A program made the translations under genes and the position numbers. From contig JAAZBV010000128.1 of assembly GCA_012513605.1 (NCBI GenBank), positions 605-64,604 on the forward strand: a DNA stretch of 64,000 nt. The letters are read 5' to 3'. The notes under the pieces were generated by a model. That model saw nothing but the letters and a program-made list of their open reading frames with translations, had not been told where the DNA came from and did not search any database. Below are positions 542 through 32,454 of this stretch, in pieces; the stretch's first letter is position 1, and each line of letters starts with the position of its first letter. The stretch comes from Desulfatiglans sp. Its GTDB lineage: Bacteria > Desulfobacterota > DSM-4660 > Desulfatiglandales > HGW-15.

Positions 542-1501
542 TTACCAGCCGCTCGGCGTATTGAATGGGGCCATGACCCCTACAGTATCAATCTGGTGTA
601 TCTCTCCTCCCCAGATTTTGTATATATGCATGGCTATCATGTCAAAGGGATCATATTTTCTTTCTACCTTATCCCTGCCAGGGTCATTAAGAAGCCTGTA
701 CTCCTTTTTATCCATCTTATGACGAAAATTGGAAAAGCCTATTGCAAGCCCGGTCTTTGTATCTGCTATTTCAACCCTCCTATCAACAATGTCACTTATA
801 TATTCAAAATTCTGTAGATTGATCTGGCTCCTGCATGTGACCATGCCCAAAAGACCAGCCGGCCGTGGCGCTGTACCGGGGATACCTACTCCGCCCAAAT
901 GCCCGCCTGTCGGTGCGGTTCGATATCCGTTTTCAATCCTGTCGCAGTCGTCTGCAAAGGGGGCGAGATTACCATTGTTCAGATCAACCGCATCATAATA
1001 TGATTTTGCAATATGGATAAGCCTACCGCGCGAATCCGCGTATTCATATGGTATTTCCATGGGGATGGCAGGCCTCACCTTTTTGAGTGTGTCAGGTATT
1101 TCAGTTCCGCGCAGTAACGAGACAAGGTGCTCTGCCTCAACAATTTTGCCATTGGAAAGTTTTAACCGGAATCCGACTTGTGCGGGTTTTCCTTCGGACT
1201 GCATTATAACCATACCTCCTACTTGTTGTGAAAAGGTATCGGGCACTATTATTTTGAATTCAGTGGGGCCCGCAGTTGCTGTTTTCCAGAGCCCTTCGCC
1301 GGGCTTAATCTGTTTTGCATTTTCCACTGTCCTCGCATCCCTGGCAAAGGACATATTTCCAGGTGTATGTGTCACCAGCGCTGAAAGGTAGTCATCTGCC
1401 ATCTTTATCAGGCACTCACGGTCACATTCAGCAGCAAAAATATTTGAAATATTGAAAGCAAACATTACAACTACTGCCAGTAAGAAAAAAAATCGTCTCA
1501 T
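542..1501 (-). CDS. Secreted protein of unknown function, paralog 1 of a three-member family in this window (two-lobed, possibly NTF2/SnoaL-like)
   Basis: 319-aa ORF. AAGGAG RBS upstream of the ATG. Hydrophobic N-terminal signal (MRRFFFLLAVVVMFAF..FAAE). Shares motifs with 1526-2455 and 42131-43162: G.GLW.TA, KL.NGKI.E.E, PF...C.R.ENG, YI..I.DRR, C-terminal PF...SGW. Confidence 0.75.
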   Translation of the reverse strand: MRRFFFLLAVVVMFAFNISNIFAAECDRECLIKMADDYLSALVTHTPGNMSFARDARTVENAKQIKPGEGLWKTATAGPTEFKIIVPDTFSQQVGGMVIMQSEGKPAQVGFRLKLSNGKIVEAEHLVSLLRGTEIPDTLKKVRPAIPMEIPYEYADSRGRLIHIAKSYYDAVDLNNGNLAPFADDCDRIENGYRTAPTGGHLGGVGIPGTAPRPAGLLGMVTCRSQINLQNFEYISDIVDRRVEIADTKTGLAIGFSNFRHKMDKKEYRLLNDPGRDKVERKYDPFDMIAMHIYKIWGGEIHQIDTVGVMAPFNTPSGW

Positions 1502-1525
1502 AAAATCTCCTTGTTTTAAAATATA

Positions 1526-2455
1526 TTACCAGCCGGAAGTGGCTCCAAAGGGCGCATTCACCATTACTGCTTCAATAGAGATGATCTGTCCATTAACAAT
1601 CTTAAACATCTCGGCCAGGAGCAGGGAACGGGGTTTATAAAATCGTGTTGGAAGTTCATCAAAAGGGGTCGGGAAAAATTCAAAGTCTTCTCTTTTACCG
1701 GGCATATCAAAAATAAACATTCCAAAGACCAGACCCCTTTCCTCATCAGCCATCAGAAAGCGGCGGTCTCTGATCTCCGTGATATAGGCGTAGTTCTTAT
1801 TATCAAACTGTTCCTTGCATCCGGTTGCGATTGTTGCCGGGTTATTGGTGGTCTGGGTGCCGTTTTCAAAGCGGTTACACTCCTTGTGAAAGGGTACTAT
1901 ATCGCCTGTGTTTTGTTCTATGCCTTCAAAATAGCTGTTAGCGATTTTTATCAATTTATCGCGGGGAGAACGCTCCGATTCGGAAAGCACCTTTGCATAT
2001 ATTTGCCTTGGCTCTTTGAGCGCTTCCGGGCTGGCGAATGAGGCCTCATCTTTTCTTGCCACGATAGTCTCAATCTCTGTTATTTTATCGTTTGCAACCT
2101 TTAACCGAACCATGAAATTGGCAAGGAGCATTGATTCTTTGACCACGCCAAACACCATAACCTGACCCACCGAAGGATCTGCCATGTATTGTTTATAGTT
2201 TATCTCCTTTGCCGTCTGAAAAAGCCCTTTACCGAGCTTAATGGGGTAACCGTTCTCTGTGATCTTAACATCCTTTGCAACCACCAGACTTTGAGGATTG
2301 TTTTTTACAAGCTGGCCAAGATAGTTATCCATCACCTTTATCAGCCCCTCTGAACCCATTTTACCGGTTGAGGCAGAGGTATTATTGCAGAGCACAAAAA
2401 GGCACAACAATGAAAAAGTGATAAAAATAAGTGCGTTGATAAAATATTTTTTCAT
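1526..2455 (-). CDS. Secreted protein of unknown function, paralog 2 (tandem to paralog 1)
   Basis: Start chosen at MKKYFINALIF (ATG 2455) because AAGGAG lies 7 nt upstream. Signal peptide present. Same conserved motifs (PFHKECNRFENG, YITEIRDRRF, APFGATSGW). Confidence 0.75.
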   Translation of the reverse strand: MKKYFINALIFITFSLLCLFVLCNNTSASTGKMGSEGLIKVMDNYLGQLVKNNPQSLVVAKDVKITENGYPIKLGKGLFQTAKEINYKQYMADPSVGQVMVFGVVKESMLLANFMVRLKVANDKITEIETIVARKDEASFASPEALKEPRQIYAKVLSESERSPRDKLIKIANSYFEGIEQNTGDIVPFHKECNRFENGTQTTNNPATIATGCKEQFDNKNYAYITEIRDRRFLMADEERGLVFGMFIFDMPGKREDFEFFPTPFDELPTRFYKPRSLLLAEMFKIVNGQIISIEAVMVNAPFGATSGW

Positions 2456-2656
2456 AAGATCTTCTCCTTTAATTAATATCAAAATCCACACCCTATCGGG
2501 GTGATAATGTCAAGAGGCAATGCCTGAACATTATGAACCTACAAAGCCTGATAAATACATTATTGCGTGCTATACCTACACGTCATGCCAGACTTGCCTG
2601 CCAGTCTGTAGCTTTTACGAAGGCTGGATCTGGCATCCAGTTGCTTTGAGAAAAAC

Positions 2657-2730
2657 CTGGATTCCCCGATCATGTCGGGGAATGACGATGGGGGTAGGCC
2701 ATCATTCCACGGCTTGACCGTGGAATCCAG
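2657..2730. repeat. Composite nested palindromic repeat (two hairpins bracketed by CTGGATTCC / GGAATCCAG)
   Basis: ctggattccccgatcatgtcggggaatgacga (2657-2688) and catcattccacggcttgaccgtggaatccag (2700-2730). The terminal 9-mers are reverse complements of each other. Confidence 0.55.
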
Positions 2731-2842: not shown

Positions 2843-5245
2843 TCAGATTTCTACCTCCATACGCCTGATGATATCATCCTGAACCCCTTTGCCAAGATCA
2901 GTAAAATAGGCGCTGTAGCCTGCAACCCTTACAATCAGGTCCCTGTGATTTTCCGGGTGCTGCTGTGCGTCCAGCAGCTCTTCGTTTCCAACGACATTAA
3001 ACTGTACCCACTTGCCTCCCATATCGCCATAAGTTTTTATGAGAATGCCAAGTTTTGCAAGCCCTTCACTGCCTCCAATAAACGACGGGTGCAGCTTGAT
3101 GTTAAGAAGCGCAGACGCGCATGCTGCCTGGTTGATTTTTGCGGCACTCCTCAGCATGGCTGTTGGACCCTTTATGTCCATGCCCTGGGCCGGCGATACT
3201 GTTCCATCAGATAATGTTGTTCCGGCATACCTGCCGTCAGGGGTTGCCCCGATAATCGAGCCCCCTGCAAACATGGATGAAATCGAGGCTCCTCCGATTC
3301 CCCTCACCTTTGCGTTTGCGGGCCTGCCAAAGGAGCGGTAATTTGATTCCACATCGATCAGAAAATTATAGAGGTCTGCTGCAATCGAGTCTGCATAATC
3401 ATTGTCATTTCCATATTTGGGTGCATTCAGGCATAATCTCCTGATATCATCATTGCCTTCCCAGTTTGCATCCAGTGCCTGTTTTAGTTCTTTAAGGGCG
3501 ATCCTCTTTGTTTCAAATACAACCTGTTTGATAGCCGCAAGCGAATCCGCTGTATTGATAGCCCCAACCGGTATCATTACAGCCCTGAAATCATATGGGG
3601 GTATGGCGTCCCTGTTGGAGAGCGCCTTACCCATCCTGACACCATCATGCATAAGAATCGTCTCAACTATTTCAACAATATCGTTATAACCATAAACATC
3701 CCCTGATCTCCCGGACACAAGAAAGCTGTGTTCATGCCATATACCGATAAAATATTTCAGATAATCCTTAAACCCTGCGATGAATTCTTCAAAGGTTTTG
3801 CTGTCCTCAACATCCGGTTTATGCGGCCCCACTTCCAGCCCGGTTCTAGGGTCTGTTCCATTGTTCAGATAAATTTCAAGAACCTTTGGAACCACAAAGA
3901 ACAGGCCGGCTAAGAAACTCTGTTTGCCAGGGACAGCAGGGTCCACACAGCCGGCCAGGTGATAATCACGGGCCTCAATAAGTGGAATGCCGCCGGATGT
4001 CATGTAGTCAATAAAGGAACCATCCAGCGCAAGGGCTGGCATACCGATACCGGTCTTTACCACCTCCAGGGCCTTGAGCATCAGATCTTCCGGTGTGTTC
4101 TTATGCACCCTCAGGGTAATGGTGTGGTGAGGCGTCCTGACACGGGTTGCCGCCTCAAGGACGAGCCAGGTCAGTTCATTGCTGGCGTCTTTGCCATCAG
4201 CCGTGACACCGCCTATGGTCATGTTGCGCCATTTTGCAAACCCTGAGTGCTGGGAGCGTTTTGCTGCTGAAAGCTTTATATTTTCAGGTCGCATGCTCTT
4301 TACACGCAGTTCACACAGAAGGTCCAGCACCTCTTCATCAGTGATCTTTCCCTCATCCCTCTCTTTTTTATAAAAGGGGTACATATACTGGTCAAACCTA
4401 CCGAAATTATGTGTTGAGCTTGGTGTTGAGATGATCTGGTTGAACCATAAGGACTGCATGGCCTGATAAAAATTATCAGGGGAATTGGCAGGAACAATGC
4501 GGCAGGCTGAGGCAATACGTTCAAGATTTTTCCTGCACACAGCATCTGTTTCCTCCGCCGCCATTCGTATAGCCTCTTCAGCATATCTTTCAGCAAGCCG
4601 GATTATTGCCTTGAGCACGATCAATGAAGCGGTCAGGAATTGTTTTTTGTTAACAGCCTCCAGAGAAAAAAACCTGAGATTTTTAAGCTCTTCCTCGATC
4701 TCCTCTATTATAGGGTTAAGCCCTTTCATCCATCGCCCAAAGTCAGTATAACAATCAGTAAAGTTAAAGGAGAGGCAGAGGCCGCTCCCCGCATAGGCGC
4801 CCCTGAATTCATCCCTGTTTTTCATGGGCGGTAATGTAATACCGACCTTAAGATAGTTAAAGAACCTTTCGTCAAAGAGCTTTGACTGCGCATACTCGGA
4901 ACACCTGGTTGACCAGTACCTGCCCAAATCTCTCATAAGGGGCCAGTCCGCATCATCCATCGAGATAATCCCATCTTCTACTGCGACCCTGATTGCATCC
5001 TCTTTCCAAATGCCCAGGAACGGATCAATCTCTGCCCCCCACGGTTTACTGGCTCCTTCACCAACAAACAGTTCATCCCTGTAAATAATCAGCGGGATAT
5101 TTTCCAGTACATTTGCATGGGCCATGGCATATCTGATTATAGCGGGTTCTCCTTCAGTCTGTTTACAGGACTCTGTAATCAGCCGCGCCTTCTCAAAACA
5201 GAGGGGAAATTTTCCCCTGCGAATCTTAATTGCAGGATCTTTCAT
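2843..5245 (-). CDS. Glycyl-radical enzyme, PFL2/glycerol-dehydratase-like family (substrate unknown)
   Basis: About 800 aa. C-terminal glycyl-radical fingerprint RVAGYSAYF (codons 2909-2929; radical Gly at 2918-2920). Thiyl loop HLAGCVDPAVPG (Cys codon 3947-3949). Start moved to MKDPAIK (5245) to avoid overlapping the upstream gene, whose stop is at 5265. Confidence 0.9.
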   Translation of the reverse strand: MKDPAIKIRRGKFPLCFEKARLITESCKQTEGEPAIIRYAMAHANVLENIPLIIYRDELFVGEGASKPWGAEIDPFLGIWKEDAIRVAVEDGIISMDDADWPLMRDLGRYWSTRCSEYAQSKLFDERFFNYLKVGITLPPMKNRDEFRGAYAGSGLCLSFNFTDCYTDFGRWMKGLNPIIEEIEEELKNLRFFSLEAVNKKQFLTASLIVLKAIIRLAERYAEEAIRMAAEETDAVCRKNLERIASACRIVPANSPDNFYQAMQSLWFNQIISTPSSTHNFGRFDQYMYPFYKKERDEGKITDEEVLDLLCELRVKSMRPENIKLSAAKRSQHSGFAKWRNMTIGGVTADGKDASNELTWLVLEAATRVRTPHHTITLRVHKNTPEDLMLKALEVVKTGIGMPALALDGSFIDYMTSGGIPLIEARDYHLAGCVDPAVPGKQSFLAGLFFVVPKVLEIYLNNGTDPRTGLEVGPHKPDVEDSKTFEEFIAGFKDYLKYFIGIWHEHSFLVSGRSGDVYGYNDIVEIVETILMHDGVRMGKALSNRDAIPPYDFRAVMIPVGAINTADSLAAIKQVVFETKRIALKELKQALDANWEGNDDIRRLCLNAPKYGNDNDYADSIAADLYNFLIDVESNYRSFGRPANAKVRGIGGASISSMFAGGSIIGATPDGRYAGTTLSDGTVSPAQGMDIKGPTAMLRSAAKINQAACASALLNIKLHPSFIGGSEGLAKLGILIKTYGDMGGKWVQFNVVGNEELLDAQQHPENHRDLIVRVAGYSAYFTDLGKGVQDDIIRRMEVEI

Positions 5246-5264
5246 TTTTAAAACCTTTTTAAGT

Positions 5265-6974
5265 CTAGTACCTCTCATAAATCGGTACAAGGTTGCCGTA
5301 TTTTGCAACCAGTTTGTTCCAGTCTTTAGGTAATACTATCTTTTTTGTAACAAGGGCATTATTGAAAAATCCCGGCCCTACGCTCTTTAACAGGCCTATA
5401 AAGGAGCCCGGCCCGCCGGCTACCAGGATCATGAGGTTTTCAGTATCCATTTTAGCCGGATTTGTGACCTCTTCAAAACCGGAGATTACAACCGGTTTGC
5501 TGTGTTCTGCTATATAATCCTTGACCTTCTGCTTTGTATACCCTTCACCTGCCAAAACCTTTGCCCAGGATGGAATAAGAATAACGCTCGACATGCTGGT
5601 GGTACCCATGGTTACAAGGGTATTAAGAATCCCTTTTGCATCTGTGCCACCCGGGACTGTCTGAGTAAAGGAGTTGGGAAAGAAGACTGTTACAGTGTTG
5701 TCTTCTTTCGTAAAGCCGCGCTCAACACTCAAGGGCTCCCAGGGGCTATTCTCTTCATCCTCACCTATCACAAGGCTGTACTTGCCGGGGTTGCCTATGA
5801 CACCCATGTCCTCGATAGCCTTTCTTGCCCCGCCGATATTCTTTACGATCAGCCCCACAGCCCTGCCGATTGCGGAATTGGCGATATTGCCCGGGCTCAA
5901 CGATCCGGAACCGGAATTGACATGTATATCTCTTCTGATAGGGCCGTTTATGGTAAGGGATGGGGCCCATGAACCTGTGCTCACCTCAAATGTATCAAAC
6001 CTCGCCTTTGGATCTGAAAATGCCTCCACTGTTGCGATCAAAACAGGCATGTGGGTAGGGAGCGCACCTGCCATAACCGCGTTGATGGCTATCTTTTCGA
6101 TGGTGGCCTTTCCTTTTCGCGGTATGATCTTTCCCATAATATGATCGGGCGGAAGATCAGTCCCTTTGAGCATCTCTGCTACTGCCGCTTCAGTTGGCGG
6201 AATAATAGGCAGACCATCGCCCCACCCCTTGCGGTAAAAGAACTGGTTTATCTCCTGAAGTGTCCCCTTAAAAGCAACCCTTGGGCTCTTGCCTGTCTGC
6301 TGTTTCGGGGATTTCTCTTCGGCCGTAAGAGGTCTGACCAGGGCATCAACAGCATCCTTCATGGCGGCTGCTACACCCTCTTCAATATCAGCAATGATGG
6401 TAGATTCGCAGGGCACTGTTTCTCCTATAACCCTTATCCCGGGCATTCCCTTGCTTGAAGCGGCTGAATGGGCATCATTAACAAAACCTACATTAGCCAG
6501 TAACACGACCGGCTTATTAAAGTCCTCGACTGATATTCCGGTATAGACGAGGTACTTTGTGCAGGAGCCTCAGTCACCTACCAGGAGAATTGCTGCGTCA
6601 ATATCATTTACCCATGCAGTAAATTTCTCTTTATTTTTTGTCTCGATCTCATTCACATTCGGCTCTGTAGATTGAAAAATGGTTGTCTGGATATCGGGGT
6701 ACATCTCCTTCAGTCTCTTATCGACTGATTTTGCCATGGGCATGGCTGCACGTTTAGTGTTGACGTATAACCCGATCTTTTTTCCTTTTAGGCTATCGAG
6801 CCTGGGAGAGATTCCACGCATGGGGATCGGGTCTACATCTGCCCAGGGGCTTAATGCCTCATATTGAATTTGCTTTTCTGTACCGGAATTTCCTGCGTCT
6901 TGAGCCATGGATGACCCCTGAAAAGCGAAAACGGCCAGAAGCCCTGTAAAAAGTGCTGATAATAATCTGTTCAT
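5265..6974 (-). CDS. UGSC-motif selenoprotein: signal peptide, flavodoxin-like domain with a U-G-S-C redox motif, and a C-terminal domain of about 400 aa of unknown function. Requires readthrough of UGA at 6572-6570.
   Basis: ORFs 6570-7028 and 5265-6506 are in the same frame and are separated only by a TGA. Readthrough gives ...DAAILLVGD-U-GSCTKYLVYTGISVEDFNKPVVLLANVGF... The start MNRLLSALFTGLLAVFAFQGSSMAQD (6974) is preceded by AAGGAG. A stem-loop follows the UGA. Confidence 0.7.
6519..6558 (-). promoter_or_regulatory. Candidate bacterial SECIS stem-loop
   Basis: It begins 12 nt 3' of the UGA: AAAGUACCUCGUCUAUACCGGAAUAUCAGUCGAGGACUUU. Hand folding gives about 15 base pairs (AAAGU/ACUUU, CCUCG/CGAGG, CU/AG, AUA/UAU) with one bulged A, a U-U mismatch and an apical loop CCGGAA. 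Confidence 0.45.
6570..6572 (-). other. In-frame UGA, candidate selenocysteine codon
   Basis: The plus strand reads tca at 6570-6572. On the minus strand the context is gta ggt gac TGA ggc tcc tgc (V G D U G S C). Confidence 0.65.
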
Positions 6975-7053
6975 GTCAGTCTCCTTTTCTTTTAAATTTG
7001 TTTTTATTACATGGCTTATAAAAAGCATATATTGAACCTGCTTTTTACGCCTT

Positions 7054-8010
7054 TTAACTTTCTCTTATCACACCATCACGAATAATAAGCTTTGGATGCC
7101 TTTGTTTCTTATATAAAGGTATGCCGCTGCCTTCTTCCTCTGTTATCAGGCTCCTGAAGCGGCGCAGCTCCCCATACTCTTCCATTGGTTCAGCGAGTTT
7201 TTCAAAGATCGATGTCATTGTGTTCATCATATTATCCGCTATATCCCAGTTCACCTCCATGGCGCCTGTTGGGCAGAGCTGTTCACATAACCAGACCATG
7301 CAGGGGCCGCAGGTATTATAGTTTATTTTTGGTGAATCGGCCAGATCAATGCTTTTAGTGGGACAGTTATCCATGCATTTAGTGCATTTGGGATAAAGGC
7401 ATATATCCGCATTATGCACTGGCTTAAGTTTAACCATATCGGCCATTCCCTCTCCGCCGCCAAGGTCCATTACTGCCCCGTAGAGTTTATCGTATTCTTT
7501 CCTGTCAGGTAATTCCGGTATGAGGTGAGTATCTCCCTGTGCTATCCTCAGGCTGCGCTGAGTGATATCCTTTCCGAACTCCCTTGCCTCTTTCAGGTCG
7601 ATTTTATCAGGGTGTCCATCAGTATAATATGGTTTTGGCATGAGCGGTATGAAACCGCTGCCATACCAGTCATTCCAGCCGGTAACTGTGAGCCCCTTTC
7701 TCCTTAGCCCTTTTACCACCCTTTCTATGTAGCCCCCTGCGCATGTGCCGTGTGTGCAAAAGGTAAATCCATATTTGCCTGTCAGATCAGGCATGGCACT
7801 AATAAAATCTGTTACAGGAGCGGGCTCCTGAAAACTCTGCACAAAGGAGCCCAGACCAATCAAGTCATATTTTGATAATTTATTGATATCCACATCCTTC
7901 ATAGGTGCGATATCACATTCATTAAAGAGCTCTTTGATGCCGGAGTGTATTTTCTCAGCTATCTGTTTTGTGTTCCCTGTCCATGAGTGGTAGATTATTA
8001 TACTTCTCAT
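7054..8010 (-). CDS. Flavodoxin-domain / 2x[4Fe-4S] ferredoxin-domain fusion protein
   Basis: N-terminus MRSIIIYHSWTGNTKQIAEKI (flavodoxin-like FMN loop). C-terminal CLYPKCTKCMDNCP and CGPCMVWLCEQLCP cluster motifs. AAGGAG RBS before the ATG at 8010. Confidence 0.8.
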   Translation of the reverse strand: MRSIIIYHSWTGNTKQIAEKIHSGIKELFNECDIAPMKDVDINKLSKYDLIGLGSFVQSFQEPAPVTDFISAMPDLTGKYGFTFCTHGTCAGGYIERVVKGLRRKGLTVTGWNDWYGSGFIPLMPKPYYTDGHPDKIDLKEAREFGKDITQRSLRIAQGDTHLIPELPDRKEYDKLYGAVMDLGGGEGMADMVKLKPVHNADICLYPKCTKCMDNCPTKSIDLADSPKINYNTCGPCMVWLCEQLCPTGAMEVNWDIADNMMNTMTSIFEKLAEPMEEYGELRRFRSLITEEEGSGIPLYKKQRHPKLIIRDGVIRES

Positions 8011-8106
8011 ACAAATATTCTCCTTCTTAATTTTTAACGATACCAAATAGTAGCAGGGAAAATATAATATAGTTGCCCGAAATTATTGTAATCTGCTATC
8101 TTTCAC

Positions 8107-8192
8107 GGGCAGGCACGGGGGCCTGCCCCTACAGATTATAATTATTTCCCTGTACCCTGTGCCCTGAGCCCTGTACCTTGAGCCCTGTCTCA
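8107..8192. repeat. GC-rich repeat block (CCCCTAC-type hairpin plus CCCTGT/GCCCTGA short tandem units)
   Basis: gggcaggcacgggggcctgcccctacag (8107-8134), followed by ccctgtaccctgtgccctgagccctgtaccttgagccctg. It overlaps the 3' end of the MFS gene. Confidence 0.5.
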
Positions 8193-9418
8193 ACCCTATC
8201 CATCTCTTCCAGCGCCCTGCGCCTGCGGTAATATGATGGCAGCAGCAGGATAAATACAACAATGGCCATCAGTATCACCAGTGAAGCTGATTCAAACATA
8301 ATAGAATAATTATACATATCATACACCATACTGCCTAAAACAGGACCGAGAAAAAGGCTTACATCTATGCCGATATACAGGGTATTGCTGGCAACCCCTC
8401 TCTTAAGGGGTGTTTCGGAAAGCATGCACATGGAATACATTGCAGGCTGAAATGCGCCGAATCCTAAAGATGCAACAGCTGCGCCAATGAGCATTGTGCC
8501 GATTGTTTTCGCTGATCCTATTATAATAAATGAGAGGGCCATTATTATCAGGCTTGGGATAAGAATCCTGGTTAATCCGTATCTATCGGTCAGATAACCG
8601 CTTGCCGGTCTTGTAATTACAAGGACTCCTGCCAGTACAGTATAAAATGAGCTTATCCCCGAAATATTGAGCTCTTTTGCATACTCAACAGTATACACAT
8701 TATATAATGACCACCCTAAATAAATAAAAAACATAACCAGTGCCATGGGAATCGCATGAACAGAGGCTATATTTTTATACCATGCCCCTGTGCTTAATAT
8801 ATCTTCCTTTGTTTTTTTATCCGGTAAAAGAAAAAGACCCGGAATGAGCCCCAGAAATGAAATAACCGCTGCAAAAAGAAAAACAGATGTAAATCCAAAG
8901 TTTTCATTTTTTAAATTTGTGCCAAAGTTCAGAATGCTTATTCCCAGGGTTGGCGCCAAAGCCATACTGAGTGATGAACTGAGCCCGTAAATCCCCATCC
9001 CGGAGGCCATTTTTTCTTTGGGAAGGTTATCCCCGGCCAGGGTCATCGTAAGGGTTCCTACAAGTGCATACTGAAGACCATGAAGCAGCCTGAAAGCGAT
9101 AAAGGCAGATATATTATCAAAAAGCGCGTAACCGATATTTGCAACTCCACCGATAAAGAAAACCAGTATCATCAGTTTTCGTTTGTCAAATTTAGTAAGA
9201 ACCGGGCCTGATATTGGCCGCATTGAGAAGGCGACACCAAAAAAGATGCCTGTTAAGAGCCCCATAATATGGGCGCTGGCCCCCAGATGAAGGGCATAGG
9301 AGGCAATAAGAGGATTTATGGCAAAATGTGAAATGGCGAGTATAAAGGATATCAGCAATATACAAATAAAATTACGGTTCCATATTGTGACCGGCACCCC
9401 TGTTTTTGAACTCTTCAA
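8129..9418 (-). CDS. MFS transporter
   Basis: 429-aa polytopic ORF with about 12 hydrophobic segments. TTG start with AAGGAG 7 nt upstream. The last ~20 codons (ETGLKVQGSGHRVQGNNYNL) are encoded by the repeat block. Confidence 0.85.
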   Translation of the reverse strand: MKSSKTGVPVTIWNRNFICILLISFILAISHFAINPLIASYALHLGASAHIMGLLTGIFFGVAFSMRPISGPVLTKFDKRKLMILVFFIGGVANIGYALFDNISAFIAFRLLHGLQYALVGTLTMTLAGDNLPKEKMASGMGIYGLSSSLSMALAPTLGISILNFGTNLKNENFGFTSVFLFAAVISFLGLIPGLFLLPDKKTKEDILSTGAWYKNIASVHAIPMALVMFFIYLGWSLYNVYTVEYAKELNISGISSFYTVLAGVLVITRPASGYLTDRYGLTRILIPSLIIMALSFIIIGSAKTIGTMLIGAAVASLGFGAFQPAMYSMCMLSETPLKRGVASNTLYIGIDVSLFLGPVLGSMVYDMYNYSIMFESASLVILMAIVVFILLLPSYYRRRRALEEMDRVETGLKVQGSGHRVQGNNYNL

Positions 9419-9613: not shown

Positions 9614-10960
9614 ATGAATAGATCAATAAAGTTGCGTTATGGATTTCTGGTCAACTGCCTGTTCCTGTCACTGTTAATCCTGACAACAATCGGAAGTCAG
9701 ATAACCTTTGCAGCCATTGCTCTTCCCGGTCACGCGCCGGAGGGCTTTAACAAAATCAGACCGGATATCCCGCAAGGTAAGCTGGAGACCATTACCTATA
9801 ATTCAAAGAGTATAGGCGTAGATCGCAAGGCGGTCGTCTACACCCCTCCAAACTATGATCCGAATAAAAAATATCCGATTCTCTACCTGATGCACGGGAT
9901 AGGAGGAAATGAGACCCATTGGACAACCCTCTGCTCAGCCAATAAGATCCTCGATAACCTGATTGCTGATAAAAAGGCTGTGCCAATGATCATTGTAATG
10001 CCTAACGGACGGGCCACAGCCGAACCGCCTTCAGGTAATTTCATGGCAGACTTTAATTACTACGCCAACCTTGAGCCGGACCTGCTGAATGATTTGATGC
10101 CCTATATTGAATCACATTATTCTGTAAACAAGAGCAGGGACCACCAGGCCCTTACAGGCCTTTCCATGGGAGGAGGTCAGGGGCTTAATTTCGGGATCAA
10201 CAATATCGACAAATTTGCATGGGTAGGCGGCTTTTCTTCTGCACCCAACCTCCAGCCGCCCACTGTTCTCGTACCCAAGATTCAGAATGCCAAGGAAAAA
10301 CTGAGCCTGCTCTGGATAGGCTGCGGGGACAAGGACAACCTGATTACTGGAAGCTGGAACCTGCATAAGGCCCTGGATGAGGCAAAAATTAATCATGTAT
10401 GGTATCTTGATTCAGGGGTGCACGAAGTCCCTGTATGGGATAATAACCTGTACCTGTTCGCCCAGATGCTCTTTAAACCCGCAGGATCAGTTACGCCTCC
10501 GCCCTCTATTGGAACATATGACGGCACCCAGCCGATCAGTATGGGAATGGGGATGCCGGGCATGGGCCGTGGCCCAATGCCGGGGGCCGGTGCACCCGGT
10601 GGCGGGGTCAATTCCGAGTTTACGGCAACAAGAGAGAATGGCGGGAGTTCATCAAAGGGGATCGCAGGGAAATGGATCGCAAAGGATGGTGACAACAATT
10701 TAAAGTATGATTTCAGGGTTGATGGCTCCATACTCACAGGCACCATCGAGAATACGCAAATGCCAGGGGCAATTGAGATTAAGGATGGAACAATACAAGG
10801 AGACAATCTCTCTTTTTCCTATGAACGCAAGATGGGTGAACAAAGTTTTACTATGAAATGGACAGGAACCCTTTCAGGCAATGAACTCAAGCTGAAACGC
10901 AGCCTCGGAGGCGGTATGGGCGGCTTTGGAGGCGGAGGGATGCCGGGAGGTGGACGCTAA
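9614..10960 (+). CDS. Secreted esterase (esterase-D/CE1-like alpha/beta hydrolase, feruloyl/acetyl-xylan esterase type) with Gly/Met-rich linkers and a C-terminal beta-rich domain
   Basis: Signal peptide. YPILYLMHGIGGNETHW and the nucleophile elbow GLSMGG. Low-complexity GMGMPGMGRGPMPGAGAPGGG and a C-terminal GGGMGGFGGGGMPGGGR. AAGGAG RBS. Confidence 0.8.
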   Translation: MNRSIKLRYGFLVNCLFLSLLILTTIGSQITFAAIALPGHAPEGFNKIRPDIPQGKLETITYNSKSIGVDRKAVVYTPPNYDPNKKYPILYLMHGIGGNETHWTTLCSANKILDNLIADKKAVPMIIVMPNGRATAEPPSGNFMADFNYYANLEPDLLNDLMPYIESHYSVNKSRDHQALTGLSMGGGQGLNFGINNIDKFAWVGGFSSAPNLQPPTVLVPKIQNAKEKLSLLWIGCGDKDNLITGSWNLHKALDEAKINHVWYLDSGVHEVPVWDNNLYLFAQMLFKPAGSVTPPPSIGTYDGTQPISMGMGMPGMGRGPMPGAGAPGGGVNSEFTATRENGGSSSKGIAGKWIAKDGDNNLKYDFRVDGSILTGTIENTQMPGAIEIKDGTIQGDNLSFSYERKMGEQSFTMKWTGTLSGNELKLKRSLGGGMGGFGGGGMPGGGR

Positions 10961-11206: not shown

Positions 11207-11404
11207 TCAAGCCGCATTTTTTGCTAACAGCTCGCGAACTGCAGGAATAAGTTCATTTGGAACTTCAACAAAAGTCTGAGATATATCTTCCCAGGCAGCT
11301 TCATCTTCTGCAACAGCTTCTTCCTCTGTCTGGCTCTCATAATGATCAAGGACACATTTTACACGTTCTTCATCCCACCCTTTTGGAAACCTGTTTTTTT
11401 TCAT
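11207..11404 (-). CDS. Small acidic protein, putative antitoxin partner
   Basis: 65 aa (MKKNRFPKGWDEERVKCVLDHYESQTEEEAVAEDEAAWED...). Its start overlaps the stop of the upstream 94-aa ORF at 11404. Confidence 0.45.
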   Translation of the reverse strand: MKKNRFPKGWDEERVKCVLDHYESQTEEEAVAEDEAAWEDISQTFVEVPNELIPAVRELLAKNAA

Positions 11405-11688
11405 CAGTTTATTCTCCTTTTCCCCCTGCGCTTAAACGCCTTTAGAGGCTTTCCTTTTAATTCATAAGCAGTAATTACGAATATACTATCAGGCTCAGAG
11501 TCCTGAACATAAATAACCCGAAGATATTTGCCACCCCTTGTCTGACCAATTGCGATCCGAGAATTTTCTTTACCTCGTCGATCTTCGCTTGGTTTCTGTA
11601 ACACATCCTTCACTTCATTTTCCTGCACATCATGATTGTAAATATGAGGCAGATTTGTTTCTGGATCTATGTAATAGCGAATTTTCAT
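11404..11688 (-). CDS. Small basic protein, putative toxin of a type II TA-like pair (family not identified with confidence)
   Basis: 94 aa with a basic C-terminus (KAFKRRGKRRIN). Overlapping two-gene cassette flanked by AT-rich non-coding DNA. Confidence 0.45.
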   Translation of the reverse strand: MKIRYYIDPETNLPHIYNHDVQENEVKDVLQKPSEDRRGKENSRIAIGQTRGGKYLRVIYVQDSEPDSIFVITAYELKGKPLKAFKRRGKRRIN

Positions 11689-15717: not shown

Positions 15718-16677
15718 TTAATACTTCCTGCTCCCTATTGCCTCAGCGGCAGTCTCCTGCGGAAACACCCCCTCTTCTGTTACAATCTTTTTAGGTACAG
15801 ATTCACCCTTTGCCAGCGCCTCCACTGCATCAAAGAGCTGCGGCCCAAGGAGCGGGCTGCACTCAATAGTGCAGTTCAGCTTTCCCTCTATCATTGCCTC
15901 AAATGCGCCTCTTACAGCATCAATGGAGACAATGATAATATCTTTGCCAGGCGCCAGTCCATATGCCTCTATCGCCTGTATGGCGCCTATGGCCATGTCA
16001 TCATTATGTGAAAAGAGGACATTTATGTTTTTACCTTCAGTCTTAAGAAATGCCTCCATTATCTCCTTACCGCCTGACCGGGTGAAATTCCCGCTCTGGC
16101 TTTTAATGACCTCCATTCCCGGATGATCTTTTATAACCTCCTCAAAACCCTTCTTTCTGTCAATAGCAGGGGCAGAACCCACAGTACCCTGAAGTTCCAC
16201 TATTTTCACATTCGTGTAGCCATTTTCAACGAGCCAGCGTGCGGCCCTGCGGCCCTCCTCAACAAAGTCTGAGCCCATGAATGTCACCCATAAAGAGTCA
16301 TCCTGCACATCCACCCCGCGGTCAATCAGGATAACAGGTATACCCGCATCCTTGGCTTCCCTCAGAACCGCCTCAAATCCGGTTTCAACAACAGGAGAAA
16401 ATGCGATAACATCCACGCCCTGGGCAATGAAGTTCCTGATAGCCTTGATCTGGTTCTCCTGCTTCTGCTGGGCATCTGAGAAGATCAGCTTTATGTTGGC
16501 CCTTTTTGCCGCCTCGCTCCGGATGGATTCGGTATTGGCGACCCTCCATGCACTTTCAGCCCCTATCTGTGAGAAGCCCACAGTAATGGTGCCGTCATCT
16601 TTGGCTGTCTGTGAACAGCCTGAGATGAATAACAGAGCTGCACAAATTATAGCAGCGATCTTGATTTGCTTTTTCAT
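15718..16677 (-). CDS. ytfQ: Periplasmic sugar-binding lipoprotein, YtfQ-like (galacto-/arabinofuranose-binding type)
   Basis: 319 aa. Lipobox FISGC. Periplasmic-binding-protein type I fold motifs. First gene of the YtfQRT-YjfF-type set. Confidence 0.8.
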   Translation of the reverse strand: MKKQIKIAAIICAALLFISGCSQTAKDDGTITVGFSQIGAESAWRVANTESIRSEAAKRANIKLIFSDAQQKQENQIKAIRNFIAQGVDVIAFSPVVETGFEAVLREAKDAGIPVILIDRGVDVQDDSLWVTFMGSDFVEEGRRAARWLVENGYTNVKIVELQGTVGSAPAIDRKKGFEEVIKDHPGMEVIKSQSGNFTRSGGKEIMEAFLKTEGKNINVLFSHNDDMAIGAIQAIEAYGLAPGKDIIIVSIDAVRGAFEAMIEGKLNCTIECSPLLGPQLFDAVEALAKGESVPKKIVTEEGVFPQETAAEAIGSRKY

Positions 16678-16699
16678 ATTATGATACCTCCAAAAAAAA

Positions 16700-17917
16700 T
16701 TAGATTGTTCCTGTTTGTTTCCATACCCTTATGGCCTTGATATCTCCTGTCGGGCAATATGCCTCACAGGCCCCGCAGCCATTGCATTTTATTGGATTAA
16801 CAGCGGGATATGATTCATAAGCCTCTTCATCCCACGTGATTTTTATCGCCTCAAAGGGGCAGGCGCGTATGCAGGTATTGCAGTCGCTGATGCCCCAGAG
16901 GCAGAGGGACATGTCCACCCTTGCAATCCCGATTACATACCTGTTCTTCTGCTCCAGATTAAGGTGCTGTAAAGACCCGCTGGGGCATGCCTTTGTACAT
17001 GCATTGCAATTTTCATTGCAATATTCTTTGTTAAACCGGATTACCGGTGTGAAAAACCCCAGAACACCTGAGCCTCCAGTATCAGGATGTATGATCCTGG
17101 AGGGACAGGCACGGACGCAGTTGCCGCATCTTAAACAAAGGGCTGTGAATTCAGCCTCCTTAATTGCGCCCGGCGGACGCAGCAGGGAATTCATGGATTC
17201 TGCATGTCCCGCTTTTTTTGCCAGGAGGCCTAATCCCAATCCTGCTGCAATTGCGATAAATACCCTGCGCGTGGATGGAAGCAGCTCTTTATATCCATTT
17301 ATTACCTGTGGCTCTTTTACCGGCCTTTTTATAAATCTCCTGCAAAAAGAGGCTGCATCATCAAGAATATCCTGTGTTGCGCCTAAAGGGCATATGCGGG
17401 CACACCATAGATTACCCGAAGTCAGTGAAAGCAACAGTAAGATTACCATGCCTGAAATAGAAATAATAACAGCGGATAAAGCTGATGCCTTATAGACAGA
17501 AAATGCACTGTTTAATAATGCGAGCGGGTCCATCCACAAAAAAAGAGGGTATCCGACTATTGCGCCTGCAATGGTTAAAAGCACGATGTATCTGCCTATC
17601 GGGGGAGAGCCTTTCCACCAGGGTTTAACAATGGGCCTGATCCTTGAGACATTATCAAGTAACAGGCCGACAGGGCATACATAGCGGCAGAAAAACCTTT
17701 TTCGGAACAGGGCAATAAAAGAAAAAAGGAGGCCCAGAATTGATCCAAGCCATAATGCCCCTCCTGCCAGTATTGTACATATTGTTACAAAGGGGCTTGC
17801 CTGGACTAATATCCTTGAGCTGTGAACCCAGAATGGGAATGGCAATAACAGCAGTATTGTTATCACAAAACATCCCAGCCTTACATAAAGGCGCATATTT
17901 TGCCTTTCTCCAGTCAT
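16700..17917 (-). CDS. Membrane-bound polyferredoxin of the NapH/MauN/NosR type
   Basis: TM segments with two CX3CP motifs (FFCRYVCPVG, LWCARICPLG), followed by four CxxCxxCxxxCP-type clusters. The start may instead be ATG 17896 (MRLYVRLG), which has the better RBS. Confidence 0.8.
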   Translation of the reverse strand: MTGERQNMRLYVRLGCFVITILLLLPFPFWVHSSRILVQASPFVTICTILAGGALWLGSILGLLFSFIALFRKRFFCRYVCPVGLLLDNVSRIRPIVKPWWKGSPPIGRYIVLLTIAGAIVGYPLFLWMDPLALLNSAFSVYKASALSAVIISISGMVILLLLSLTSGNLWCARICPLGATQDILDDAASFCRRFIKRPVKEPQVINGYKELLPSTRRVFIAIAAGLGLGLLAKKAGHAESMNSLLRPPGAIKEAEFTALCLRCGNCVRACPSRIIHPDTGGSGVLGFFTPVIRFNKEYCNENCNACTKACPSGSLQHLNLEQKNRYVIGIARVDMSLCLWGISDCNTCIRACPFEAIKITWDEEAYESYPAVNPIKCNGCGACEAYCPTGDIKAIRVWKQTGTI

Positions 17918-17941: not shown

Positions 17942-19195
17942 TTAACCTGCAATTCTAAGATAGATATAGTAAGCGGATATCAGGATCTGTATTATAATGG
18001 CTGCACCGCTCCACAACCTCATTACAGAACCTGGCTGATCAGAAGCAGGAACCTCTCCCCTGAACATGCTTCTGTGATTAAGCCATGCTATAAAAGGCCC
18101 CACAAGAAAGGCAATTACTGATGTCATGTCAATAAATGCTTCAAAGCTTTTCATCAGTGTGGCTATAACTGCCAGACTTACAATAACCAGGAACACCATC
18201 ACCCAGTCATAGAAACGCCTGCCCATAAATTTATTGCCTGACCCTGGCAGCATCTCAATAGCAAGCGCCTCTATCACACGGGGATATCCGTCCATCACCG
18301 TGATAAGGGTTGAAAACATGACAGTAATGGCTGCTATACCTATCGGGTAATAGGCCCAGTTCCCCACAAGTTCGGTAAAAAGCCTGATAACCTGATTGGC
18401 AAAACCAATGGAATTCTTTTCCGGGGTTATGCCGTTGCAATACATCACAACCATGCCCAGCAGAACAAAGCATACGGCCAGTAAAAAGGTAGTGATAAAA
18501 CCGATATTAAAATCCAGCTTTGCCTCAGAAACAGTAACCTCACGTCCAAAGTCCCTTGCCTTTGCGCGGGCCCATAAAGACTGAAGCACAGATGCATCCA
18601 TGGGGGTGGGCATATAACCTGCCATTGCAACCACATAGAGCATGGTGGCCCCGTCAAAGCTGACGCACCCAAGTGACATACCATGAAATCTCAGCTTGAA
18701 CAGGGCGCTTATTGTGGTTATTATGATCAGCAGTGTGAATACTGAAACTATCCCTTTAGTCAGCCTCTCCAGTATATGGTAACGCCCTGTTATCAGGATC
18801 ACGGCGCAAATTATAAGGAGGAGGCCGTTGTCAACCAGCATCCCGAATGACACCCCGAGCACAGCATTGATAAGCGCAGTGGTAACAAGCGTTATTGCCG
18901 CTGTAATAAATACCATGCTCAATAACTGGGAAAGCCCGAAAAGCCAGAGGGTCCACCTGCCAAAGCTGATATAGCTGTCCACAAGTGAACGGCCCGTTGC
19001 GGCAGCAAACTCGCTGCCGAAACGAATACCGGGATACTTGACCAGACAGAAAAAGAGGATAAAAGGGATCATTGCCAGACCATACACTGCACCTGAGCGT
19101 GTGGAGTAGACCAGGTGTGATACACCCACTGCTGCGGCAGTGTACAAAATACCCGGGCCAAGTATGGCCCATAGATTGTTGCCGGACTTTCTCAT
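17942..19195 (-). CDS. Nramp-related membrane transporter lacking the canonical metal-binding motifs
   Basis: 417-aa polytopic protein. The N-terminus LGPGILYTAAAVGVSHLV aligns with Nramp TM1, but DPGN is replaced, and the TM6 region reads GYMPTPMD rather than MPHN. Confidence 0.65.
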   Translation of the reverse strand: MRKSGNNLWAILGPGILYTAAAVGVSHLVYSTRSGAVYGLAMIPFILFFCLVKYPGIRFGSEFAAATGRSLVDSYISFGRWTLWLFGLSQLLSMVFITAAITLVTTALINAVLGVSFGMLVDNGLLLIICAVILITGRYHILERLTKGIVSVFTLLIIITTISALFKLRFHGMSLGCVSFDGATMLYVVAMAGYMPTPMDASVLQSLWARAKARDFGREVTVSEAKLDFNIGFITTFLLAVCFVLLGMVVMYCNGITPEKNSIGFANQVIRLFTELVGNWAYYPIGIAAITVMFSTLITVMDGYPRVIEALAIEMLPGSGNKFMGRRFYDWVMVFLVIVSLAVIATLMKSFEAFIDMTSVIAFLVGPFIAWLNHRSMFRGEVPASDQPGSVMRLWSGAAIIIQILISAYYIYLRIAG

Positions 19196-19211
19196 TCCAT
19201 ATTCCTCATGC

Positions 19212-20702
19212 CTATCCAGGAAGGATTACGCCCCTCTTTTTAAGGGTTGCCTGCAATGCCTTTATATCAATCTTTCTTAAGTCTGTATTGCCCGCTATTG
19301 CCTGTGCCGCTGCTACCCCTGCTGCCTCGCCAAGGGCAATACAATGGGGTATAAGGTTAAAATATTCATTTACAATCATCTCAGATGCAAATGCCCTGCA
19401 TGCAACCAGCATATTGTCCACCTTTGCCGGTATCATGCAGCGGTAGGGCATGTATGTTACCGGGTATTTTATAGAATCCTTGCCGCGATCCACATCAGGG
19501 AATACTGCAACAGTATCTGTGAAGGGGGTCTCTGTATTCATGTCCTTTTCACTCACTACATAATCTCCTGTAACGCGTCTTGCGCCGCGGGTGCCGAGCT
19601 GGGGGTTTGAGAGCACAATGAAGCTCTTCTCAAAACCGGGGATATGCTTCTTGAAATAATCGTGAGTTATCAGCATATCCTTACGGCCTTTAAACTCAAC
19701 ACGGGTAAGCTCATCCACATCCACCTGGCTTGTGTTTGCATAGCGCGGGAAACACCATACAACATGCTCCTGGTTTTTCAGGTTGCTTGTGAGGAATCCC
19801 CCGTGCCCTCCAGCCTTTCTGACCTCGCGCATGTGATCTGTCAACTCTTTAGTGTGTGACGCTTTGTAATCGTCATATTTTTTAAGGTCAACATTATCTA
19901 TCCAGTATGAAAATGAGAGGTTGGCAATCCTCATTGTGCGTTCTATATCCATCTTGAAATCGGCCCCTGCATATGGCAGAAGGTCACCATCGCCTGTGGC
20001 GTCTATTACAACCTTTGCAAGCACTGCCTGTCTTCCTGACTTGCTCTCAAAGATGACACCCCTGGCCCTGTTGCCCTCCATTATGGGCTCTGTTCCCCAT
20101 GCATGGAGGTATGTCTTTACCCCTGCCTCTTCAACCATATCCTGTAAAATGCATTTTGATATCTCGGCATCAATATGAGCCGAGTATATTACCCTCTGCT
20201 CACGTATATTAAAAAAGGAGCGGTTCTGGTAATATGCCACAAGCTTTTTATCATCCGAACCCCAGTGCTCTTTTTTCGGGTAATCAGCCGCCTCCCTGCG
20301 GTCGAGCCGGTCTATCCACTCCTGGGTAATGCCTGCTATCTGCTGTTTACCGCTGAAGTCGCTCAGGTTGGGGATAATGGTAACAAGACCACCTGTGCCC
20401 ATACCGCCAAGGTGCTCGTATCTTTCTATAAGGACAGTATCTGCGCCGCTCCTGGCCGCTGCTACGGCCGCGCCTATACCACCGGGGCCTCCGCCTACAA
20501 CCACAACATCGGCTGTTCGGCATACCTTTGTCTCACGGGCTGCCTCCTTGATTGTCTTTCCTGTAATCGCGGCCTGCTGGGCTGAACTGACTGATACAGG
20601 AAGCAGCATGCCTCCTGCCCCGGCAGCAATGGCTGCGCCTGTAATAGTAGTATTTTTGAAAAAATCACGCCGTGTTATGCCCTTTTCTTTTTGCAATTTC
20701 AT
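19212..20702 (-). CDS. Tat-exported FAD-dependent oxidoreductase (FAD_oxidored/PF12831-like), copy 1
   Basis: Start at MKLQKEKGITRRDFFK (GAGGAG RBS). Twin-arginine motif TRRDFFK. Dinucleotide fold VVVVGGGPGGIGAAVAAARSG. Confidence 0.8.
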   Translation of the reverse strand: MKLQKEKGITRRDFFKNTTITGAAIAAGAGGMLLPVSVSSAQQAAITGKTIKEAARETKVCRTADVVVVGGGPGGIGAAVAAARSGADTVLIERYEHLGGMGTGGLVTIIPNLSDFSGKQQIAGITQEWIDRLDRREAADYPKKEHWGSDDKKLVAYYQNRSFFNIREQRVIYSAHIDAEISKCILQDMVEEAGVKTYLHAWGTEPIMEGNRARGVIFESKSGRQAVLAKVVIDATGDGDLLPYAGADFKMDIERTMRIANLSFSYWIDNVDLKKYDDYKASHTKELTDHMREVRKAGGHGGFLTSNLKNQEHVVWCFPRYANTSQVDVDELTRVEFKGRKDMLITHDYFKKHIPGFEKSFIVLSNPQLGTRGARRVTGDYVVSEKDMNTETPFTDTVAVFPDVDRGKDSIKYPVTYMPYRCMIPAKVDNMLVACRAFASEMIVNEYFNLIPHCIALGEAAGVAAAQAIAGNTDLRKIDIKALQATLKKRGVILPG

Positions 20703-28252: not shown

Positions 28253-28326
28253 AATTTCCTCTTATTGGTGTCCAAAATTAAACAAAGGCATATTTTCATA
28301 AATAAATAATAAAATCCTACTACGAC

Positions 28327-28404
28327 GTCATGCCCGTGAAGACGGGCATCCATTTTCTTTGACTTTTTTTAAAAATAGATACCCGCCTTCGCGGGAATGA
28401 CGAA
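28327..28404. repeat. Pair of GGGAATGAC-type hairpin repeats
   Basis: gtcatgcccgtgaagacgggcatccat (28327-28353) and gatacccgccttcgcgggaatgacgaa (28378-28404). Confidence 0.55.
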
Positions 28405-28500
28405 TAAAGGTGTTTAATTCTTGATATTTTTGAATAGTCCATAATTATTGTTTCTATAAGTTAGTGTTTATTGCTTTTGGACAGGAATAATCTCCTCTCG

Positions 28501-30468: not shown

Positions 30469-30490
30469 GATATCCCTCCTTTGGTTAATT

Positions 30491-31198: not shown

Positions 31199-31217
31199 TT
31201 TACCTCCTTTGCAATGG

Positions 31218-32285: not shown

Positions 32286-32301
32286 GTGACTCTCTACTTA
32301 A

Positions 32302-32319
32302 TGCGTTATCGATAACGCA
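32302..32319. promoter_or_regulatory. Operator 1: perfect 18-bp palindrome TGCGTTATCGATAACGCA
   Basis: Self-complementary. Lies 17-34 nt upstream of the regulator ATG and directly abuts the minus-strand -10 element. Confidence 0.65.
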
Positions 32320-32347
32320 ATATATTATCTCTCATTTTTCATGTCAA
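32319..32347 (-). promoter_or_regulatory. Sigma70-type promoter for the regulator/araD/GH51 array
   Basis: The minus strand reads TTGACA-17 nt-TATATT, followed immediately by operator 1. Confidence 0.55.
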
Positions 32348-32390
32348 TAATTTTTCATAAGGGTCTACCTGATCTATCTAAAAGATATAA

Positions 32391-32419
32391 TTGACAAAAT
32401 TGGCACTGTTTAATAATAT
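32391..32419 (+). promoter_or_regulatory. Sigma70-type promoter for the kinase-HAD-araA operon
   Basis: TTGACA (32391-32396), 17 nt, TAATAT (32414-32419), followed 1 nt later by operator 2. Confidence 0.55.
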
Positions 32420-32420
32420 C

Positions 32421-32436
32421 GCGTTATCGATAACGC
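32421..32436. promoter_or_regulatory. Operator 2: perfect 16-bp palindrome GCGTTATCGATAACGC
   Basis: Identical core to operator 1. Located between the -10 element and the RBS of the kinase gene. Confidence 0.65.
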
Positions 32437-32454
32437 AAAAAAGCAGGATATCAA

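Follow-up and report, generated by a model that had tools for sequence, protein, structure and literature searches.

A glycyl radical enzyme of the 'GCVDP' clade in a compact gene cluster with a UGSC-family selenoprotein and no adjacent activase gene, from a Desulfatiglans contig

Glycyl radical enzymes (GREs) catalyse chemically difficult anaerobic reactions. In the DNA studied here (the window: a stretch of 64 kb from contig JAAZBV010000128.1 of the Desulfatiglans sp. assembly GCA_012513605.1), a GRE is encoded at the end of a four-gene cluster at positions 2843-9418, together with a UGSC-family selenoprotein fusion, a flavodoxin/ferredoxin fusion and a major facilitator superfamily (MFS) transporter, and no activase gene lies nearby. 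The locus raises the question of how such a GRE is activated and whether its neighbours are dedicated to it. With moderate confidence, the four genes are regarded here as a compacted form of a recurrent catabolic gene set, located in a plant-polymer/ester island, with a conventional GRE that is activated in trans. The genes, and the two catalytic loops of the GRE as located by alignment, are:

8129..9418, minus strand: MFS transporter (429 aa), with which the four-gene unit begins; PF07690 (MFS_1), 160 bits
7054..8010, minus strand: protein with a flavodoxin-like domain and a 2x[4Fe-4S] ferredoxin-like domain (318 aa); Flavodoxin_3, Flavodoxin_5, Flavodoxin_1 and Fer4 Pfam matches
5265..6974, minus strand: UGSC-family selenoprotein fusion (569 aa), one frame through a TGA; PF24696, 76.5 bits
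2843..5245, minus strand: GRE of the 'GCVDP' clade (800 aa); PF02901 (PFL-like), 474 bits, and PF01228 (Gly_radical), 100 bits
3938..3952, minus strand: thiyl loop of the GRE, G432-C433-V434-D435-P436
2903..2929, minus strand: glycyl radical loop of the GRE, R773-VAGYSAYF-781, with Gly776

Pfam and NCBIfam back all four assignments. An initial annotation of this DNA had described four co-directional, closely spaced genes ending in a GRE with RVAGYSAYF and GCVDP loops, and both points were confirmed; the gaps are 118, 79 and 19 nt in the order from the MFS gene to the GRE gene. The open reading frame (ORF) of the flavodoxin fusion reaches a TTG at 8046, and its homologs begin with MRS or MKS, which sets the start at 8010. 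The UGSC gene has an AAGGAG 7 nt 5' of its ATG. For the GRE the start was placed at 5245 and not at the mechanical ORF start at 5308, because the latter overlaps the UGSC gene; the resulting length of 800 aa matches that of the homologs, and the gene has its own ribosome-binding site.

With both Pfam domains and both the glycyl and the Cys loop present, the protein is a member of the GRE superfamily. Among the matches listed it was 64-92% identical to at least 120 proteins from Desulfobacterota, Dehalococcoidia and Bathyarchaeia, to which a genome scan added Acidobacteriota loci. Residues R773, V774, A775, G776, Y777, S778 and A779 were invariant in 111 of 111 family members, as were C433 and D435, and an inserted loop is also conserved in that set. 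Every curated NCBIfam family cut-off was missed: the GRE scored 516 bits against the PFL2-3 subfamily (TIGR01774; cut-off 678), 488 against HpsG (1000), 452 against CutC (1050), 448 against HypD (1100), 444 against IAD (1100) and 359 against HPAD (1150), all equivalog scores being less than half of the cut-off.

The best solved relative was the B12-independent glycerol dehydratase of C. butyricum (PDB 1r8w; 434 bits), followed by the GRE diol dehydratase (5i2a; 408 bits), both in end-to-end alignments. The glycyl loop, the position of Cys433, the FDQYMYP motif and His281 are common to 1r8w and the window GRE, whereas the catalytic Glu435 of 1r8w is Asp435 in the window GRE, Asp447 is Ala446 and Ser282 is Asn; in the region of His164 the window GRE has a 6-residue insertion (GLCLSFNFTDCY), with an Asp aligned at the His. 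The set that marks a glycerol or diol dehydratase (Glu at Cys+2, His164, and Asp447 binding the leaving hydroxyl) is not present, and, unlike the contexts of those dehydratases, that of the window GRE has no microcompartment or propanediol genes. The five solved GREs closest to it in the Cys-loop region all have a residue other than Asp at Cys+2 (four have Glu, and 7e7l has Leu). With the other GRE eliminases (CutC, HypD, HpsG/HpfG and IslA) the enzyme shares the superfamily and the overall length, and the activases of its ortholog loci are of the same type, that of locus L019 scoring 341 bits with the HypD-activase model and 325 bits with the HpsH model. The missed cut-offs, Asp435 and the other altered residues, and the inserted loop therefore place the GRE in an uncharacterised clade with an altered catalytic site, outside all characterised families. 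No paper on the GCVDP clade was found in literature searches.

GRE paralogs at 40-47% identity (several of the loci L027-L080 were sampled), from gut Clostridia, Acidobacteriota, Spirochaetia and others, all have GC[VL]D in the thiyl loop, which suggests, from their sequences, a large uncharacterised Asp-type GRE group. Many of these loci have two or three tandem GREs with one activase. A second GRE, 30% identical and with a GCVWP loop, is present in L001 (3828-6173) between the MFS gene and the flavodoxin fusion, without an activase.

GRE ortholog loci were collected by a scan of one genome per species, which gave 27 loci at 67% identity or above, followed by a sharp drop to 58% or below. Neighbourhood clustering covered these 27 together with L081 and, from the window, its first 22 kb, in total 29 loci (10 Desulfatiglans-like and 19 other, from Dehalococcoidia, other Chloroflexota, Acidobacteriota and other Desulfobacterota). 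The closest public relatives were metagenome-assembled genomes (MAGs) labelled Desulfatiglans or Desulfatiglandales, with a GRE identity of 84-91%. The distribution of neighbouring genes was:

GRE activase in the locus: Desulfatiglans-like 0 of 10, other 14 of 19
UGSC-family gene in the locus: Desulfatiglans-like 10 of 10, other 5 of 19
Secreted protein of the 'f2' family in the locus: Desulfatiglans-like 9 of 10, other 6 of 19
Type-B carboxylesterase in the locus: Desulfatiglans-like 3 of 10, other 10 of 19

In the 14 loci outside the Desulfatiglans-like lineage that have one, the activase gene is adjacent to the GRE gene and ordinary, that of L019 reaching 357 bits against TIGR02494 (cut-off 174); of the five activase-less loci there, three are on short or truncated contigs. 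In seven loci (L007, L008, L009, L022-L025) a cytoplasmic carboxylesterase gene is directly upstream of activase and GRE, and in L011 and L053 it lies within 3.5 kb of them. Two contigs of a single MAG (JAFGGA01) carry, respectively, a GRE ortholog with no activase within 10 kb on either side (L015) and a GRE-activase-GRE arrangement (L029), and this pair is a direct precedent for an activase encoded away from a GRE ortholog. In L053 and L025 a single activase gene stands beside two GREs.

In the 64-kb window no GRE activase was detected by tblastn with 44 activases from related loci, which gave only ferredoxin-domain similarity (40 bits or less), and no protein of the four-gene cluster has the N-terminal radical S-adenosylmethionine (radical-SAM) CxxxCxxC core of TIGR02494. 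The absence of an activase from these 64 kb, as stated in the initial annotation, is upheld, whereas the accompanying statement that no ORF has a CxxxCxxC radical-SAM core needs a correction as to the literal string: a six-frame scan gave four occurrences, three of them in ORFs of about 100-140 aa and one in a long, Pfam-confirmed gene (16703..17917, at position 299 of 405) for a NapH/NapG-like polyferredoxin, not a radical-SAM enzyme. A hidden activase in the window was rejected on the same motif scan and tblastn search, with ferredoxin-domain matches only.

The GREs TdcE and GrcA of E. coli are activated in trans by PflA. They resemble the window GRE, and the L015/L029 layout, in that the GRE gene has no adjacent activase; they differ from it in that the window GRE belongs to another, uncharacterised clade and its trans activase is only presumed. 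Given the adjacent activases of the orthologs and the L015/L029 pair, the window GRE is therefore conventional and most likely activated in trans. That no activase gene adjoins it is a peculiarity of gene order in one bacterial lineage, and an orphan GRE in this sense poses no real puzzle. According to the initial annotation, its proposal would fall if the close homologs had ordinary activases and no UGSC or flavodoxin linkage, or if the GRE belonged to a known clade; what was found goes half of this way, through the activases.

GRE orthologs at 66% identity also occur in Bathyarchaeia (L160, L161), as repeated pairs of GRE and MmgE/PrpD genes with no activase in view and with CapA-like (PGA_cap) and ABC transporter genes nearby.

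The gene directly upstream of the GRE gene encodes a protein of three parts, a candidate signal peptide, the UGSC domain and a C-terminal domain of about 350 aa. Its features are:

6903..6974, minus strand: candidate Sec-type signal peptide (MNRLLSALFTGLLAVFAFQGSSMA, then QD), recognised in the sequence by eye
6570..6572, minus strand: in-frame TGA read as selenocysteine (VGD-U-GSC), conserved in orthologs
6515..6563, minus strand: hairpin resembling a selenocysteine insertion sequence (SECIS), starting about 12 nt past the UGA

PF24696 covers residues 53-213, across the TGA, well above its cut-off of 25 bits. Against NF041046, the stand-alone family of about 150 aa, the protein scored 60 bits (cut-off 125), so it is not an equivalog of the short form. 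The label 'UGSC selenoprotein' of the initial annotation was right as to the family and the in-frame selenocysteine codon, and is to be amended to a two-domain protein with a candidate signal peptide. The TGA is at the identical codon in 12 orthologs, with protein sequence conserved on both sides, and is the sole credible in-frame TGA between long same-frame ORFs of the window. The hairpin has a minimum free energy of -16.6 kcal/mol (z = -1.9); across the 12 orthologs its stem is near-invariant in nucleotides, synonymous sites included, and the loop is variable, which supports a SECIS and is not proof of one, because covariation is absent. Rfam and tRNA scans of the window gave no match. The signal-peptide pattern (basic N-terminus, variable hydrophobic core, S-[MWGR]-A-Q) recurs in 15 orthologs.

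For the C-terminal domain no match was found in Pfam, NCBIfam or PDB by sequence and profile searches. The domain belongs to a family of 6719 clusters at 50% identity (E <= 0.001), in which the conserved polar residues are Asp, Thr, Asn, Arg and Glu, and Cys and His are not conserved. An AF2 model from a diverse alignment of 76 sequences reached pLDDT 77 and pTM 0.76 (pLDDT 37 from a shallow alignment), and a Foldseek search of this model against PDB gave no match at E <= 0.001. The weak top Foldseek matches and the MmgE/PrpD genes beside archaeal GREs led to MmgE/PrpD being tried as a remote relative, which was rejected at an hhalign probability of 0.1. Domain fusions gave no clue to function, the ten long relatives having UGSC, an internal duplication or cell-surface stalk domains only. 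Redox motifs of the paralogs vary, some having U-S-S-C and others neither selenocysteine nor Cys. A second UGSC-fusion paralog is located 1-2 kb upstream of the first in L003 (4330-6117), L018 (4905-6692) and L006 (5360-6721), and those of L003 and L018 have their own in-frame stop read as selenocysteine (VGH-U-SSC).

UGSC is a known selenoprotein family, and a 'UGSC/Unknown_1' fusion has been reported in ocean metagenomes (Zhang and Gladyshev 2008, PMC2398784); the function of the UGSC family is still unknown according to a 2026 review, and literature searches yielded no paper assigning one. The window protein has the U-G-S-C motif and the PF24696 match in common with the published family, and differs from the stand-alone form of about 150 aa in being a 569-aa fusion that is predicted to be exported.

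In all 10 Desulfatiglans-like loci the UGSC fusion is either the immediate upstream neighbour of the GRE or separated from it by one gene, and the adjacency was seen again in L088/L089. Acidobacteriota have UGSC orthologs in other arrangements, at a distance of 6-8 kb from the GRE (L053 and L081), and UGSC paralogs are near GRE orthologs in L009, L014 and L023. UGSC orthologs at 77-84% identity also occur with no GRE in view (L084, L085, L086), among esterases, GH43, CocE/NonD hydrolases, flavin adenine dinucleotide (FAD) proteins, URO-D-like genes and TonB receptors, and paralogs were found beside coenzyme A-transferases or a molybdoenzyme, again with no GRE (L158, L159). The linkage of UGSC and GRE genes proposed initially thus stands for the lineage and for several others, while a role as dedicated partner does not, given the signal peptide and the GRE-less loci. 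It is best read as belonging to the gene set as a co-traveller, and not as a substitute for the activase.

The initial annotation had also drawn an analogy with HypD and D-proline reductase of Clostridia, in which a GRE and a selenoprotein occur in one organism, as here. The two cases differ in that the window GRE is not HypD (448 of the 1100 bits required) and the UGSC protein matches no known reductase family and is predicted to be exported; no Prd-like gene was found among the window ORFs scanned, and the analogy gained no support.

The flavodoxin fusion has the domain architecture of the EFR1-family ferredoxin (NF038196), to which it scored 70.8 bits, slightly short of the cut-off of 75. 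Its eight conserved Cys form the motifs Cx4Cx2Cx3CP and Cx2Cx4Cx3CP. These are ferredoxin-type and no radical-SAM domain is present, on which grounds the fusion was rejected as a cryptic radical-SAM enzyme; with the activases it has only the ferredoxin insert in common (E = 7e-5 over some 50 residues). Of the 10 lineage loci, 5 have the fusion alongside the GRE, as does one Syntrophus locus with GRE paralogs. A metagenome scan for relatives of the fusion gave 67 loci, 11 of them at least 17 kb long, and none of the 67 has a GRE or an activase; in seven loci a 643-aa FAD_binding_2 protein adjoins the relatives; some of the loci also have a ferredoxin of about 100 aa, a cupin-like (f8-like) protein and an f2-like protein. 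The view of the fusion as a GRE partner was not borne out by these loci, and its partner is most likely not the GRE but a flavoenzyme from the same gene set.

The sister loci have the order MFS, flavodoxin fusion, 643-aa FAD protein, small ferredoxin, UGSC, (Tat-signal cupin-like f8), GRE and f2, and in L006 and L020 the FAD and ferredoxin genes sit between the flavodoxin fusion and the UGSC gene. The FAD and ferredoxin genes and f8 are missing from the window, whose arrangement looks, by its gene order, like a deletion derivative of the sister-locus gene set. The MFS gene is next to the cluster in 4 of 10 lineage loci (L001, L002, L020 and the window), with ABC transporters in its place in other lineages. 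The 643-aa protein (FAD_binding_2/Succ_DH_flav_C), often followed by the ferredoxin of about 100 aa, was observed in L006, L020, L085, L086, L090, L091, L111 and L114; the pair recurs by flavodoxin-fusion and UGSC genes and is shaped like AprAB or fumarate reductase.

The wider setting of the cluster is an island with araA, araB, araD, a LacI regulator, two GH51-like arabinofuranosidases, two type-B carboxylesterases, an old-yellow-enzyme homolog, two PF12831 FAD oxidoreductases, a ribose-type ABC transporter and an aldehyde:ferredoxin oxidoreductase. The flanking features are:

542..2491, minus strand: tandem pair of 'f2'-family genes, each for a secreted protein of about 320 aa with a signal-peptide-like N-terminus
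2651..2683, minus strand: terminator-like site, 3' of the GRE stop, with a hairpin at 2683..2661 and a T-run
9614..10960, plus strand, divergent from the cluster: secreted esterase (448 aa); PF00756, 81 bits

The terminator-like site, a pattern match from a consensus scan, has a 9-bp stem with 5 GC pairs, followed by TTTTT. The f2 and UGSC families were the most frequent neighbours of GRE orthologs, each in 15 of the 29 loci. The f2 proteins of the window had no Pfam or NCBIfam match; a relative in L083 is called DUF8021, on which no paper was found in literature searches. The secreted esterase resembles the feruloyl-esterase domain of NF041944 (122 bits), and its family is near GRE orthologs in 9 of the 29 loci. 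Its C-terminal part (10500-10960) is a low-complexity region rich in Gly, Met and Pro (GMGMPGMGRGPMPGAGAPGGG ... GGGMGGFGGGGMPGGGR).

Positions 26714-36299 form an L-arabinose/arabinan block with the two GH51-like genes, an araD-like aldolase, LacI, an FGGY kinase, a HAD hydrolase and araA. The aldehyde:ferredoxin oxidoreductase gene is at 37490-39337, 32 kb from the GRE, and in L081 at 18457-20505, 6 kb from the GRE ortholog; this proximity would fit an aldehyde-forming GRE reaction. Between the esterase and ABC transporter genes (11207-11688, minus strand) there is a pair of short ORFs (94 and 65 aa) that overlap and are toxin-antitoxin-like by sequence alone. URO-D-like proteins were observed near UGSC genes and near GRE orthologs or paralogs in L012, L021, L024, L055, L084 and L085 (by Pfam in L084 and L085, otherwise by N-terminal sequence), and CapA-like proteins near GRE orthologs or paralogs in L015, L016, L022, L025, L029 and L161 (by Pfam only in L161, otherwise by N-terminal sequence).

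In the favoured explanation, the UGSC selenoprotein would be exported and, like the secreted esterases and f2 proteins, act outside the cytoplasm, and the transporter (MFS here, ABC elsewhere) would import a small ester or a hydrolysis product. On this product the cytoplasmic GRE would carry out a radical C-X cleavage or elimination in which, by analogy with GRE eliminases, Gly776 would hold the radical, Cys433 would form the thiyl and Asp435 would act as acid/base. The gene of the radical-SAM activase that it would need most likely lies in another part of the genome, and the activase is most likely shared with other GREs.

Several observations weigh against this explanation. The search for an activase gene in the source genome covered the 64 kb and found none, and none of the ten Desulfatiglans-like loci has one within 10 kb. 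The signal peptide of the UGSC protein is a judgement made by eye. The constant UGSC-GRE adjacency in the lineage, with a gap of 19 nt here, is tighter than expected for loose co-travellers and suggests co-translation. In L157 a UGSC paralog is 2 kb from a 32%-identical GRE and an activase. In L009 (12618-17970) UGSC paralogs without selenocysteine or Cys lie on either side of a second activase gene (16406-17356), about 5-10 kb away from the GRE ortholog; nowhere else was the UGSC family seen in such close physical linkage to GRE activation. The arrangements of L157 and L009 hint at a more direct link between UGSC proteins and GREs.

One alternative is that the juxtaposition is meaningless, the gene order having been inherited in one lineage and the genes being independent members of a crowded catabolic island. 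The ten tight UGSC-GRE loci count for about one evolutionary event, since all come from a single lineage with 84-91% GRE identity, and the size of the UGSC fusion family (6719 clusters), with three members on one 7.4-Mb contig (P0156, P0243, P0245), raises the chance of mere proximity. Nevertheless, the proximity recurs in other arrangements in at least five other lineages (L053, L081, L009, L014, L023, L157), and f2, esterases, f8/f17 cupin-like and FAD proteins accompany the GRE, the UGSC fusion and the flavodoxin fusion when each is traced separately. This alternative is considered unlikely.

In the view of the initial annotation, the GRE would have two dedicated partners in a new GRE-dependent pathway: the UGSC selenoprotein, which would handle the product or cofactor of the GRE, and the flavodoxin fusion, which would give electrons to a distant activase. 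The recurrence of UGSC genes by the GRE in every lineage locus and in L088/L089, at 6-8 kb in L053 and L081 and as paralogs in L009, L014, L023 and L157, speaks for it, as does a 39%-identical flavodoxin fusion in the activase-less Syntrophus MAG locus L055 with two GRE paralogs. It is made quite doubtful by the conserved candidate signal peptide of the UGSC orthologs, whereas GREs are cytoplasmic, by the GRE-less UGSC loci (L084-L086, L158 and L159), by the lack of the selenocysteine/Cys motif in many UGSC paralogs, some of them near GREs, by the absence of GRE and activase from all 67 flavodoxin-fusion loci, and by the GRE orthologs outside the lineage, most of which (14 of 19) pair with an ordinary activase with no UGSC gene nearby.

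That the GRE of the Desulfatiglans-like lineage is a relic no longer activated, or a radical-free enzyme, would agree with the ten loci lacking an activase within 10 kb and is nonetheless highly improbable. Across the lineage the ORF is retained over all of its 800 aa at 84-92% identity, without any change in the Gly776 loop, Cys433 or Asp435; the gene is preceded by a ribosome-binding site of its own and followed by a terminator-like site. This pattern would fit purifying selection on a working enzyme.

The compacted catabolic gene set with a trans-activated GRE is therefore retained as the preferred explanation. In a more speculative extension, put forward tentatively and held to be improbable, the GCVDP clade, as part of the wider GC[VL]D set to which many gut Clostridia contribute, would run a new radical reaction on a plant or algal compound released by carboxylesterases in anoxic sediments and soils; the UGSC-fusion family would be a true partner that acts on this substrate ahead of the GRE or after it, and Desulfatiglans-like bacteria would have come to couple translation of its exported selenocysteine form to that of the GRE.

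To our knowledge, each newly assigned GRE clade has revealed a new pathway, as for choline, hydroxyproline, isethionate and sulfoquinovose products. The UGSC fusion is flagged here as a very large family for which no structural relative could be detected and to which no function is assigned. The GCVDP clade is widespread in uncultured anaerobes of sediment, peat and soil (Desulfatiglans-like bacteria, Dehalococcoidia, Acidobacteriota and Bathyarchaeia), and its consistent embedding among esterases suggests that anaerobic degradation of esterified plant or algal carbon includes a step not yet described.

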